From Eledone cirrhosa (lineage: Eukaryota): a DNA stretch of 64,000 nucleotides. A model generated the notes under the pieces. That model did not search any database, was not told the DNA's origin, and saw nothing but the letters and a program-made list of their open reading frames with translations. Within the stretch, counting starts at the first letter, position 1, and the number at the start of each line of letters is the position of its first letter. Positions 46,278 to 51,602 of this stretch are shown piece after piece. The translations under genes were made by a program, and so were the position numbers. The stretch lies in NCBI GenBank assembly GCA_964016885.1, contig OZ024744.1, positions 80,910,001-80,974,000 on the forward strand. The letters run 5' to 3'.

Positions 46278-46500
46278 AATTTATTGGACATATTACAATC
46301 GTTTTTCTGGCGACCAGCTCGAAGCCCGATCGATGTGATGATCGAACCTGACTCTGAAAATCGCAAGGTCCATAGGAAAATCTGCTTTGTAGAATCAAGT
46401 CGTATCTGAGGACCTTGCGATTTTCAGAGTCAGGTTCGATCATCACATCAATCGTGCCTTGAGCTGGTCGCCAGAGAAACGATTGTATGTCCAATAAATT
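46278..46500. repeat. Fold-back inverted repeat (46278-46371 / 46410-46500) containing a hammerhead on + (46401-46490)
   Basis: CGTAT CTGAGGA ...long stem II... GAAA CGATTG TA; the left-arm copy preserves the stem I partner ATATG. Confidence 0.8.
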
Positions 46501-46626
46501 CCATTCGTCGCAACATTGATTCTCTTTTTTTCTGTGTTATATTTATATATATATATATATATATGAAGTATTTCCGTAGGAAAGGTAAAGGAAAAGAGAG
46601 TGCTCTATGTAGACTACAGAGCTTTT

Positions 46627-46758
46627 TAGTTATGTAATAAACAACATAAGATAATTATTTCATTTACCAGTGGTTTCTTGAAGACAAATATAAATATCTG
46701 TCTTCAAGAAACCACTGGTAAATGAAATAATTATCTTATGTTGTTTATTACATAACTA
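46627..46758. repeat. Fold-back inverted repeat with the 3' half of a hammerhead at the apex
   Basis: ~60 bp arms; stem TTGAAGACA/TGTCTTCAA then GAAA CCACTGG TA; right arm ends in (TA)n. Confidence 0.8.
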
Positions 46759-46773
46759 TATATATATATATAA

Positions 46774-47142
46774 AGAAGAAGAAGAAGAAGAAGAAGAAGA
46801 AGAAGAAGAAGAAGAAGAAGAAGAAGAAGAAGAAGAAGAAGAAGAAGACGAGAGTGAAAGAGAGAACGAGACAATTGGTACCAGAAAGGAACAAAAACAC
46901 AGTAATAGACAAGATATATATATATATATGTGTGTGCACACATACATATATATATATATATATATATATATATATATATCTTGTCTATTGCTGTGTTTTT
47001 GTTCCTTTCTGGTACCAATTGTCTCGTTCTCTCTTTCACTCTCGTCTTCTTCTTCTTCTTCTTCTTCTTCTTCTTCTTCTTCTTCTTCTTCTTCTTCTTC
47101 TTCTTCTTCTTCTTCTTCTTCTTCTTCTTCTTCTTCTTCTTC
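46774..47142. repeat. (TA)n-centred palindrome with ~65 bp unique arms and outer (GAA)n/(TTC)n tracts
   Basis: 46847-46915 is the reverse complement of 46978-47047 with one mismatch. Confidence 0.92.
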
Positions 47143-47929
47143 TCCCACTTATTCCTGTGAGGGTTGTAGGGGCAGAGACCTCAAATACTCCTTCCAAAAG
47201 CAACCGCTTCAAACTGATCAGGCTGGATCCCTAAATGTGATTAGCCAAGCTCATGGATGTTATCCAACCATAATTTTATTGTAAGAACCTTTGTTAAGTT
47301 ATGTTCGAAGCACCAATTTCATAATGAGAAAGTTAGTTTTATTTATTCATTTCCTTCAAAATTCCTGATTACTAGGTGCACCCTCTTCACTGGCTCCTTA
47401 TCCCCCACCCCTACAGATCTCTACCTTATTAATCTAACCCTTATAGATTCTTAAGCTATAAGCATGACATAAGTTATCTCCCTTCTCCTCTAAACTTAAA
47501 AAAAGGGGTTTCCTCACCTTTTTACTCCTCTCCTTTTCCCTCTTTCTACATATAAATGTTTTGGACAGACAGACGGAGAAACAACTCTTCTTTTATAATA
47601 TAGATGATTTTCAAAATTATTTGAAAATTATTTGGCAGGGTCTTTCATTAAAAATGACTCTATCGTGATGCAATTGCTTCAACTTTCAACACACAACTAA
47701 CTAACTAATACAGCTCCAAAATAATATAATTTACTGGAAAAATAAAAAATAAATAATGATTTCTAATTTAGGCACAAGACAAACAATTCTTTGGGGCAGG
47801 GAAAGTTGATTAAATTGACCCCAGAGCGTTACTGGTGCTTTATTGACCAACAATAACAGCATGAACCAATTGAAGAAAAATTGTCATAGCCCCTTGTTTA
47901 TCTACTCTGTCTCACTGACATGCATATGC

Positions 47930-48470
47930 CACCCCATGGTCCCAGCAACCAGAAAAGAAAAAGCATTACTCTGGAGGATAGCAACGGAGATAGATGCACT
48001 GAAAGAGCCATTCTTACTCACAGGGCTCACTTCTGTGAATAGTCAACTCCATCCCAATAGAAGTGAGTACGGAAGTGGTTCAGAGTCCCAGAAACTCAGA
48101 AGTTTCCACCACTACAGATTTGAGAAGCCAGTTCCATTTCATAGAGCTCTCTGCTGTGAGTAGCCAACTCCATTCTGATAGCCGCGAATAGGAAGGTAGT
48201 TCAGTATCCTAGAAGACCAGAAGTCTCTAGGTTTGACTTTGACAAGAAGCCAATCCATGTCATTCGGCTCCCTCCTGCAGATGGCCAACTCTATCCTGAA
48301 AGCAGCAAGTACGGAAATGGTATGGGGGCCTAAAAACACCAGAAGTTTCCACCATGATAAGTTCGATGACAAGCTTATCAGAATACAGCCGATACTTCAA
48401 AAGCTTGCGACCTTCAATTTGTCCCTCAGCAAAGCATCTCTGTGTCTGACACCAAATGTATCAAGTTGCT
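47930..48470 (+). repeat. Unclassified degenerate dispersed repeat with internal tandem subunits
   Basis: Homologous motifs to 1592-2200, 53945-54200(-) and 63670-63910. Confidence 0.55.
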
Positions 48471-49046
48471 GCTGGAGAAAGTGTGTCATTCTTATTTATT
48501 TTTTTATTGCCCTCACTCACTCAAATTTTTATTGCCCTTCCCCACATCAAATTTTTTACATGAGTAAAAAAAAAACCGAATCACTTTACTGCTGCTTGAC
48601 CTGTTACAAATAGCAACTAAATTTCTCTCAAATCACACTCTCAGCCATCATACATAAAATGAAAGATCATATTGCATAGTTTGAGATTTCCAAATATGTG
48701 GGATAGTCACAGTTGAAACAGTTTTGGTTATAAGTTTGTTCAACCCACATGAAGTCACCTTCCTCACTGATTAACTCTAATTGGTTATCAAATTATTGTG
48801 TGAATGAGGAAACAACAGAAGCTGTGTCCTTCTATTCGATAAGCTTCATTCCATTATTTTATATATATATATATATATATAATGTAGGAGGTGAGTTTTA
48901 TTGTTGTACAATAAAGCAATGCAGATATCGGATAAGAAGCACTCTACAGTTTGTAGGACTGGAGTATACATAATATATAAGAACAAAAGATGGTTAAAAG
49001 AGTTCCATGTATTTTATTATGCGCATTTCAAAAACAAATATCCTCC

Positions 49047-49117
49047 TGTTTTATCTGATGAAAACACAAATATTATTGCATGATGATATTTGTTTTTGAA
49101 ATGCGCATAATAAAATA
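49047..49117 (+). ncRNA. Complete minimal type I hammerhead ribozyme at the apex of inverted repeat 48973-49042 / 49085-49154
   Basis: TGTTTTAT CTGATGA AAACACAAATATTATT GCAT GATGATATTTGTTTTT GAAA TGCGCA TA/ATAAAATA. Confidence 0.85.
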
Positions 49118-49592
49118 CATGGAACTCTTTTAACCATCTTTTGTTCTTATATATATATATATATATATATATATATATATATATATATATATATTATTTT
49201 ATATATATATATATATATATATGACAGCAACACAACAAAAGCACCCAGCCCAATCTGTGAAGTGGTCATGTTGGTATCACAACAAAAAGCACCCAGTCAA
49301 TATTGTAAAGTGGTTGTTTCGATACCATGATGAAAAGCACACAATCCACACTGTAAATGTCGTTGGTGTCAGGAAGGCCATCCAGCTGTAGAAACCATGC
49401 CAGAAACAGTTCTGTGTGAGCATGCCTAAACTGGAGCAACATGAAATAAATTGTCTTGCTCAAAGATATAAGGCATCACCCGGTCTGAATATATATATAT
49501 ATATATATATATATATATATATATATATATATATATATATATATATATATATATATATATATATATATATATATATATATATATATATATAT

Positions 49593-49870
49593 ATATATTC
49601 ATTAGTTAAGCAAAACAAGACCACAAATTTCACAAGGAAGACATTATTAAAAGATTGTCAACATATTTTAGTTTCATGTAAGGAATGTAGAGAATAATAA
49701 TAATAATATTAATAATAATAATTATATTTATTAATAATAATTATTATTATTATTAATATTATTATTATTATTCTCTACATTCCTTACATCAAACTAAAAT
49801 ATGTTGACAATCTTTTAATAATGTCTTCCTTGTGAAATTTGTGGTCTTGTTTTGCTTAACTCATGAATAT
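49593..49870. repeat. Near-perfect palindrome centred on (AAT)n/(TTA)n, next to a long (TA)n tract (49489-49597)
   Basis: ~130 bp arms with about two mismatches. Confidence 0.92.
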
Positions 49871-50170
49871 TTCCAGCTCTGCGCACCTAACTTCTGCATG
49901 AACCCAGCCACCTAGCTGCTTTCTACTGCATATTGCACATTGAGCACATGCCTTTACGCTTTGGCTTCTAATTAACTCACCAATCTCTCCTCTACTATCT
50001 CCATCTCTCTCTTTAAGATTGGTTACTCTTGAACTGATTATATATATATATATATATATCCGGGGAGTGTAACTTGGAGTTACTGTAGGTTCACCCGGGT
50101 GACGACTCGATGTTTAAGTTCACTTCAGTGCCGAGGTGTAGAGCTAGACAGAGTGTATTATAGTGAAATA

Positions 50171-50281
50171 AAATAACAAGGACGATTGGTTACTCCTTCA
50201 TTATGTTTATTGGTTGGTGACGCATATTTCGCCACCAACCAATAAACGTAATGAAGGAGTAACCAATTGTCCTTGTTATTT
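50171..50281. repeat. Fold-back inverted repeat whose 13-nt loop is the 3' half of a hammerhead on the minus strand
   Basis: Minus strand GC GAAA TATGCG TC/ACCAACCAATAAA; arms 50171-50219 / 50233-50281. Confidence 0.78.
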
Positions 50282-51211
50282 CACCGTTAATCCGTAAATT
50301 CACAGTAGTCAAATCCCGGATCTTCAGCAAGGGAGAAGATTTAACTATCTGTGTTTACACATCAAATGCAAATCTGCGAATGACCCGTCACACGTGTTGC
50401 ATTTTTAAAAATACACACATCATACCAGCATCATCTCAGTGGCATGAATAGGATTATCGACAGCTAGAAGTTCTAGTTACACTTTAATTAGTTATCTACC
50501 TAGCTGTGTGTGCTTACACACTTTACAAATTATCCCCTGTGATTGTTTCATGTGTTTATTTTATATATATATATGTCAATCAATTTCTAGTTGATATAAA
50601 ATGCTTGGATCTATTCATTGGAATCTTTTAGCTTATTCTACGGGGGATATGGCACATGTCTCGGACATAACTCCCTTAATTTAATTTTGGATATATATAC
50701 GGCCCCTTAATTGTAGAGCTAACGCAGTTGAAAGGATTCGGCTGCTATTTCTAGCTGTCGATAATCCTTTTCACGCCACTGTGATGACACTGGTACGATG
50801 TATGTAGTTCGATGTGCGATGGGTCATTTGTAGATTTGAATTTGATGTGTAAACACAGATAGTTAAATCTTCTCCCTTGCTGAAGATCCGGGATTTGACT
50901 ACTGTGAGTTTACGGATTAATGGTGAAATATATTTCTTTAATGAAATATATACAAGGAAGATTAATCATTTTAATTTTGAAGTTCTAGTTAAACTATAAT
51001 TAGTTACCTACCTAGCTATGTGTACTTACACACTTTACAAATTAACCCCTGTGATTGTTTCATGTGTTTATTTTAGATATATATATATGTCAATCAATTT
51101 CTAGTTGATATAAAATGGTTGGATCTCTTCATTGGAATCTTTGAGCTTATTCTACGGAGGATATGGCGCATGTCTCAGACATGACTCCCTTAATTTAATT
51201 TTGGATATATA
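50277..51211. repeat. Interleaved inverted (50277-50367 / 50840-50930) and direct (50467-50699 / 50979-51211) repeats
   Basis: Directly alignable by eye, few mismatches. Confidence 0.85.
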
Positions 51212-51285
51212 TATATATAAATATATATCTATATCTGTATCTATATATATATATATTAGAATTGGTGCTCTGAAATAGCGATGTG

Positions 51286-51602
51286 TATATGAATGTATAT
51301 ATAGTATATTTGGCAATACACTGTATGCTTAATTAAAAGCATTTTGAAGACCTTACGCTATTGTTTTAAAGTAGTGACTATGTCACTTACTTCTTTTTTC
51401 AACAAACAAAGGGAGATAAGCTGACAGATCTGATGAATACCAACAGTATGAAACAGAGATCTGTCAGCTTATCTCCCTTTGTTTGTTGAAAAAAGAAGTA
51501 AGTGACATAGTCACTACTTGAAAACAATAGCGTAAGGTCTTCAAAATGCTTTTAATTAAGCATACAGTGTATTGCCAAATATACTATATATACATTCATA
51601 TA
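51286..51602. repeat. Fold-back inverted repeat, ~146 bp arms, loop contains a hammerhead core
   Basis: Loop CTGATGA ATAC CAACA GTAT GAAA CAG (51430-51456); one mismatch seen between the arms. Confidence 0.88.

Follow-up and report, generated by a model that had tools for sequence, protein, structure and literature searches.

We analysed a 64,000-nucleotide stretch of Eledone cirrhosa DNA (assembly GCA_964016885.1, contig OZ024744.1, positions 80,910,001 to 80,974,000 of the forward strand; hereafter the window) in which five inverted repeats (IR1 to IR5), each with all or part of a hammerhead ribozyme (HHR) motif, lie between positions 46278 and 51607. The five palindromes are almost certainly real, retro-derived 3′ ends of HHR-bearing families of Penelope-like elements (PLEs), that is, structures of a known kind. 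Each is a head-to-head pair of 5′-truncated PLE ends, probably built from two separate complementary DNAs (cDNAs) and not from one cDNA folding back. An initial annotation of the region had proposed that reverse transcription stalls at the ribozyme and that the cDNA then snaps back and copies itself, so that the apex of such palindromes would as a rule lie in an HHR.

The five inverted repeats and their hammerhead motifs

All five inverted repeats that the initial annotation had reported were recovered at the same positions by self-blastn (E 1e-36 to 1e-139; Table 1). On the scale used throughout, 0 is the first base past the predicted HHR cleavage site and negative values lie 5′ of it. Each repeat turns in an HHR motif, as had been described: the shorter arm of all five terminates within the HHR of its family (F1 to F5 for IR1 to IR5, respectively). 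IR3 holds the complete type I HHR previously assigned to 49047-49117, with predicted cleavage after 49109, and is one of three descriptor matches in the window; a descriptor of the same kind gave 24 matches in 490 kb of genome vs. none in a Markov control. In IR1, the HHR-like motif (46401-46490) comprises stem I, CTGAGGA (46406) and GAAA (46476) around a stem II of ~63 nt, and 3 nt at the cleavage site, retained in the left arm, are gone from the right one, so that calling this ribozyme reconstructable from both arms was fair. IR5 turned out to contain more than the CTGATGA, stem II and GAAA credited to it, its HHR (51430-51465) having core, stem II, GAAA, stem III and a TC site and missing solely the 5′ strand of stem I.

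IR2 and IR4 indeed contain only the 3′ half of an HHR; CTGATGA is missing from both arms of IR2. The TATGCG of IR4 is a decayed stem III, derived from the CGCGCG of F4, and not the family form; the 21-mer across it is unique in the genome by exact match, the window copy being the only one. Lone 3′ halves are weak evidence, since 14% of random 80-nt windows match one. Because the halves in IR2 and IR4 are weak by themselves, other copies of F2 and F4 were examined, and both families carry a full HHR elsewhere. Scanned against Rfam with E values of up to 10, the window gave no hammerhead family, only sub-threshold matches to microRNA hairpins.

Family size was counted genome-wide as exact matches to 19-22-mers taken from the arms, F4 being counted with an arm pattern and not with the stem III 21-mer. 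There were 1,107 matches for F1, 4,936 for F2, 19,064 for F3, 2,054 for F4 and 542 for F5, and reversed control anchors gave 0 matches for each of the five families. In other copies, the full HHR spans −89 to +7 (F1), −54 to +7 (F2), −63 to +8 (F3), −84 to +5 (F4) and −42 to +6 (F5). The features of type I HHRs (CUGANGA and GAAA boxes, stems I to III, NUH site) are present in F2, F3, F5 and part of F4. The F1 motif carries a ~63-nt stem II insert with a mismatched first pair, and its minimum-energy fold buries the core. The arms, said earlier to be unrelated, do fall into five families, but F1 and F4 have in common a similar ~60-nt stem II insert, as judged by eye. A branched insert of that length occurs in the HHR-like motifs of F1, of F4 and also at L050 9573-9895. 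In many F4 copies (L143, L147, L149, L151, L157, L159, L163, L167, L168, L171 and L183) CCGTCGA or CCATCGA replaces the CTGACGA core; since these non-canonical cores are nevertheless widespread, F4 amplification may not need a canonical one.

Each family has an AT-rich body end, an optional tail of 28-100 nt and then (TA)n. Folding placed a hairpin in the tail of F2 and F3 only, and one trial motif matched one of five tails. The arms had been described as pointing toward (TA)n tracts; (TA)n targeting holds, but the end of IR4 at 50281 adjoins another inverted repeat. F5 occurs as ~318-nt tandem monomers without an open reading frame (ORF; spacing 318 nt in L188), with a 5-bp stem III and a stem I extended to ~30 bp, and in L130 the tail runs into the next monomer. 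From this layout F5 appears retrozyme-like. A rarer orientation was seen at L189 540-1707, where two F1 copies lie tail-to-tail in a ~1.2-kb palindrome.

Coding parents of F2, F3, and F4

A long copy of F3 (L172) contains an 821-residue open frame with reverse transcriptase (RT) motifs, DKT and a CxCX5C linker, and its C-terminal region has a GIY-YIG-like motif together with CxxC and CxH motifs. Atlas neighbours of this parent at 0.96-0.98 include GIY-YIG and RVT_1 clusters. The parents of F2 (L181, L182) and F4 (L183) have broken ORFs that are 33-47% identical to the F3 parent (tblastn), run sense to their hammerheads and lie between or upstream of HHR anchors. Partial tandems, that is, pseudo-long terminal repeats (pLTRs), occur in L174, L176, L181 and L182, and tails and inversions in all five families. 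The F3 tandems are spaced by 3,334 and 4,406 nt, the F3 parent has RWT, and the family combines (TA)n insertion with a canonical HHR. By these features F2, F3 and F4 classify as endonuclease-containing (EN+) PLEs, with a single ORF for RT plus, at its C-terminal end, a GIY-YIG endonuclease, linked to an HHR-bearing 3′ end. The earlier suggestion that the palindromes are retro-derived PLE ends and not miniature inverted-repeat transposable elements (MITEs) is thus upheld by the parents of these three families, which refute a MITE identity for F2, F3 and F4. F1 and F5 look non-autonomous.

The window also contains a broken, 5′-truncated PLE ORF fragment on the minus strand (44893-46236; 41-52% identical to the F3 parent), which adjoins a palindrome (46240-46279) that is small and centred on TA. 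A tandem repeat of 99 nt occupies 44748-44949.

Arm ends relative to the ribozyme

Junctions were mapped at the first 30 anchor loci of each family and in additional pairs drawn from the match lists, and were called with an arm-to-arm dynamic programme. Of 88 F1-F4 rows, five (L143, L175, L177, L178 and L179; long events outside the HHR) were discarded as weak or wrongly paired, and five of 19 non-window F5 rows, with arms of 3-24 nt, were excluded, leaving 14. Among the resulting 97 non-window fold-backs, the shorter arm terminates in the HHR in 35 (F1: 11/19; F2: 4/14; F3: 7/30; F4: 12/20; F5: 1/14), a share that may be a few points low, given that events missed by the seed include four that end in the HHR (L056, L057, L069 and L227) and three that were uncalled (L208, L213 and L219). 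The shares of F1 and F4 are high because most of the positions available to an end lie within their HHRs.

When 5′ stops of arms and single copies (n = 294) were expressed per 100 nt at risk, the HHR had 0.52 vs. 0.89 in the next upstream zone (75 stops in 14,510 nt vs. 87 in 9,727 nt; one-sided for a reduced rate, p = 0.0003), and the rate was lower in the HHR in each of the five families. F1 was set aside in a retest because its upstream zone is its 5′ limit; without it, the HHR stop rate did not exceed the upstream rate (p = 0.93), nor did it fall significantly below it (p = 0.10). Ends within 10 nt of the cleavage site were found in 4/57 cases for F4 and 1/55 for F5, the only families whose anchors lie 3′ of the site. 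The commonest turn of F3 lies ~60 nt 5′ of its HHR: genome-wide, 2,555 F3 fold-backs have an inner spacing of 205-235 (turn near −122) vs. 459 with a spacing of up to 102, close enough for a turn inside the HHR, and 747 exact, loop-free 28-nt palindromes are centred on CATATG at −122. Ends at the 5′ side cluster at −122 to −125 in F3 and −112 to −117 in F1, and more loosely at about −100 to −110 in F4 and about −150 in F5.

In a 480-kb sample taken at fixed genome coordinates, 42 fold-backs remained after removal of 40 satellite repeats in L251, a density of roughly one per 11 kb. A core or 3′ half lay within 30 nt of the apex in 14 of the 42 (7.4 expected) and a CTGANGA core in 8 (1.8 expected), so the predicted enrichment of HHRs near apices over background was observed; neither was present at 28 apices, and (TA)n flanked both sides of 19 fold-backs. 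An HHR probably comes to lie near the apex of short stubs only because it sits within ~40-125 nt of the 3′ end. L251 itself (C7, 30.0 Mb) is an AT-rich satellite array whose internal inverted repeats gave 40 matches in 10 kb.

Within the window, a complete type I HHR on the minus strand (43516-43462; 5-bp stem I, palindromic stem III, ~150 nt from (TA)n) has no fold-back, and is therefore a counter-example to a rule that ties apices to ribozymes. Further inverted repeats (46773-47143, 49595-49870, 23064-23642, 62349-62529 and 50277-50469/50749-50930) match none of F1-F5; their apex is (TA)n in two and (AAT)n in one, and three with short loops (23064-23642, 46773-47120 and 49595-49870) lack an HHR motif at their apices. 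IR1 to IR5 are a selection that the initial annotation made from among these other repeats. An apex rule does not hold, and nothing indicates that reverse transcription stalls at the ribozyme.

Tails and the comparison of arms

Among F1-F4 events (n = 83), 78 have one tail, four have none and one has two. Of the window repeats, IR3 and IR5 bear the tail on the shorter arm, IR4 bears it on the longer arm and IR1 has none; the longer arm of IR2 was not callable because its stem II is self-complementary. Where the owner of the loop could be called, the tail was on the 5′-shorter arm in 31 of 52 events (vs. one half, p = 0.21), for which snap-back predicts none. Simple snap-back of a cDNA is contradicted by these 31 events and by IR3 and IR5, because the shorter arm holds sequence that the longer arm lacks. 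Eight of 90 F1, F3 and F4 loci carry an inverted tail with no detectable inverted body, 5′ of a tail-less direct arm, one of the eight (L070) being doubtful as a fold-back with a deletion.

In 10 events, divergence averaged 2.8% between the arms of one locus vs. 8.9% between loci, and the F3 hot spot is common to different subfamily variants. The low divergence within loci and the shared hot spot favour repeated events over the spread of one master copy.

A model with two cDNAs

From the family identities, copy numbers, parents of F2, F3 and F4, junction positions and one-tail pattern observed above, we infer a course of events in which the GIY-YIG endonuclease of the element would nick both strands of a TA tract. 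One nicked 3′ end would prime reverse transcription at an outer start site and so give rise to a tail, and the other would prime at an inner, AT-rich start site and leave none. Each cDNA would extend for a variable distance 5′-ward, and a few matching bases, or else a short insert, would link the two cDNA 3′ ends. The place where the cDNAs ended would then become the turn. Often that place is specific to the family and lies upstream of the ribozyme, and it may be the 5′ end of the transcript; passages of PMC2377424 place Penelope transcription within the pLTR, and the clusters of 5′ ends may therefore be transcript starts. The model fits passages of PMC11167929, according to which both strands of the target are nicked and extended by a purified PLE protein, two start sites bound the tail and HHR cleavage is not needed. 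Once base-paired to the inverted copy of itself, a ribozyme is predicted to be inactive.

It is also quite possible, if somewhat less likely than not, that PLE integration is obligately paired, each nicked strand using a different one of the two start sites on a single transcript. Both cDNAs could then run off the transcript 5′ end and anneal there, in which case the thousands of short palindromes would map the start sites and the transcription start of each family (in F3, the palindromic hexamer at −122) and, at about one fold-back per 11 kb, would be a major source of perfect-hairpin RNA in this genome.

Weighing the alternatives

Several observations speak against our account. The arms of one locus share variants, which requires that a single RNA or a single source locus supplied both cDNAs; the partner arm of the same locus was the closest in only six of 10 events. 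One tail in 94% of events calls for a strict pairing of start sites that the two-cDNA model leaves unexplained, and passages of PMC11167929 report no strand difference between the two start sites in vitro. Passages of PMC8557442 suggest “EN-mediated resolution”, by which a tail may be trimmed from one arm after fold-back. Clustering of 5′ ends is the sole ground on which turn points may be taken for transcript starts. On the side of identity, a Pfam search at E 0.01 of 13 frames, the F3 parent ORF included, gave 0 matches. For F1 and F5 there was no linked coding parent among the loci searched, most of which span only 1-3 kb, and tblastn matched one of 41 F1 and two of 39 F5 loci, unjoined to the element. 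All five window copies end in their HHR, for which the product of the family rates is ~0.002 if they were picked blind; we put this down to the choice of repeats. Another HHR family turns directly 5′ of its core in three of the 42 sampled fold-backs (L243 1394-1525, L245 537-677 and L262 1589-1704).

One alternative is self-priming of a single molecule: a cDNA (or, in the proposal made in passages of PMC3846280, an antisense RNA) folds back and is copied into a hairpin with two tails, one of which the endonuclease trims at an internal TA-rich site during integration. The locus-specific variants shared by the arms, the short overlaps at many junctions, the single tail in 78 of 83 events (as expected of trimming at one end) and the published proposals of self-priming (PMC3846280) and of EN-mediated tail resolution (PMC8557442) all agree with it. 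We nevertheless consider it unlikely: the first-made arm would have to lose its tail in 31 of 52 events, loci with a tail-only inverted piece would not arise, and the 747 loop-free palindromes are more easily produced by two 3′ ends annealing at a palindromic hexamer than by a turn within one molecule. A stall at the hammerhead, as initially proposed, would account for the five window copies, for the excess of CTGANGA cores near apices, for the high shares of F1 and F4, for IR4 and two L234 events, which end within 6 nt of the cleavage site, and for the one other family that turns beside its core. The lower per-base stop rate in the HHR in all five families, the low shares of F3, F2 and F5, the genome-wide distribution of F3 turns, the 28 sampled apices without a motif and the fact that the HHRs of F1 and F4 fill most of the span available for ends make such a stall very unlikely. 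An assembly or library artefact caused by chimeric fold-back reads is scarcely credible, given arms that differ by substitutions, by indels and by a tail at one outer end, and an architecture that recurs at fixed element positions in thousands of loci. The short, palindromic, TA-flanked and numerous stubs do resemble DNA-transposon MITEs with HHR-like words by chance, but the probability of this is close to negligible, as the repeated unit is not the palindrome: junctions vary, many copies are single-armed, the ends are asymmetric, the tails are one-sided and the arms of long copies run on into RT/GIY-YIG ORFs.

Comparison with known systems

In L1 twin priming, the model of Ostertag and Kazazian, priming on the element RNA reportedly starts from two target 3′ ends, and the resulting cDNAs are linked where they match over a short stretch. 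The inverted and direct segments are said to be non-overlapping in L1, whereas the arms overlap here and form palindromes.

A close match is with EN+ PLEs that carry an inverted truncated copy, where passages of PMC8557442, PMC3846280 and PMC2377424 describe the same head-to-head arrangement, an optional tail at one end, palindromes at the junction, (TA)n and an HHR near the 3′ end. PMC8557442 is the source for inverted 5′-truncated copies, their one-ended tail and the targeting of (TA)n, and PMC3846280 for palindromes at an inverted PLE junction and for the proposal of self-priming. Published EN+ PLE tails are 30-40 nt long, compared with 28-100 nt here, where the arms are often only 50-200 nt. 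The counts obtained here permit a test of which arm bears the tail, and no such test was found in the passages of the EN+ PLE literature drawn upon. Neither an apex rule nor twin priming in PLEs was found in the literature searched, most subscription papers lying outside the search.

Passages of PMC11167929 show that PAc (Poseidon, from the green anole) is alike in that both strands are nicked and extended, two start sites bound the tail and HHR cleavage is dispensable. The paper does not link this activity to inverted insertions, using “inverted” once, of an oligonucleotide, and it detected no difference between the strands in the start site. The parental ORFs of F2, F3 and F4 are of Hydra-clade type. 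With members of the Hydra clade of C-terminal EN+ PLEs, as characterised in passages of PMC8557442, the F3 parent shares DKT, RW(T), CxCX5C, CxxC, CxH, the canonical HHR and (TA)n insertion. That clade has RWK and is generally <3 kb, compared with RWT and a unit spacing of 3.3-4.4 kb in F3; the likeness is one of motifs, not of a tree.

The ribozymes have the conserved core boxes of the type I HHRs of PLE pLTRs and non-LTR retrozymes (passages of PMC4209133 and bioRxiv 10.64898/2026.07.22.740005), and F3, F4 and F5 have a short stem III with a palindromic loop; a palindromic stem III is described for pLTR hammerheads in PMC4209133. As ORF-less tandem monomers of ~318 nt, F5 resembles the non-LTR retrozymes in passages of the bioRxiv report. 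Departures from known type I HHRs are the ~60-nt stem II inserts of F1 and F4, the changed cores of many F4 copies, and the 5-bp stem III with long stem I extension of F5.

Coordinates and other features of the window

The arms of the five repeats are listed in Table 1. A 631-aa frame on the minus strand (40634-42529) is a candidate LINE reverse transcriptase, as it reads like one; a TA tract and an inserted fragment break it up. GC-rich blocks (46-54%) occupy positions ~2000-16500 and 26000-37000; the same 27-nt CAG/CAA-rich repeat occurs in them at 5849, at 11914 and, inverted, at 31363, apparently in ~6-kb units arranged in tandem and inverted.

Table 1. Arms of the five inverted repeats (window coordinates; 5′ ends relative to the predicted cleavage site).
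Arm	Family	Coordinates	Strand	5′ end	Tail	Remarks
IR1, inverted	F1	46278..46371	-	~−77, inside core	absent	outer end cut short
IR1, direct	F1	46373..46540	+	−115 (usual F1 5′ limit)	absent	runs to body end at (TA)n
IR2, inverted	F2	46561..46691	-		~65 nt, 46561-46626	
IR2, direct	F2	46694..46758	+		absent	turn within stem II
IR3, inverted, 5′-shorter	F3	48880..49048	-	~−25	~90 nt, 48880-48972	
IR3, direct, loop-bearing	F3	49047..49154	+	~−66	absent	
IR4, longer	F4	50060..50235	-	−17	~100 nt, reaching (TA)n	decayed stem III
IR4, shorter	F4	50233..50281	+	~−1, at predicted cleavage site	absent	3-nt junction overlap
IR5, inverted, 5′-shorter	F5	51258..51431	-	−9, in stem III	~28 nt, 51258-51285	
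IR5, direct	F5	51429..51607	+	−37	absent	

Significance

The structure itself is ordinary PLE debris that follows a known pattern. There are enough stubs for a test of how PLEs generate inverted insertions, an open task according to passages of PMC8557442, and their one-tail pattern (78/83) and its independence from arm length (31/52) separate priming of two cDNAs from snap-back. In repeat annotation, such stubs may be mistaken for MITEs. Any transcripts of them would form near-perfect double-stranded RNA, a type of substrate that passages of PMC5625713 tie to A-to-I hyper-editing.

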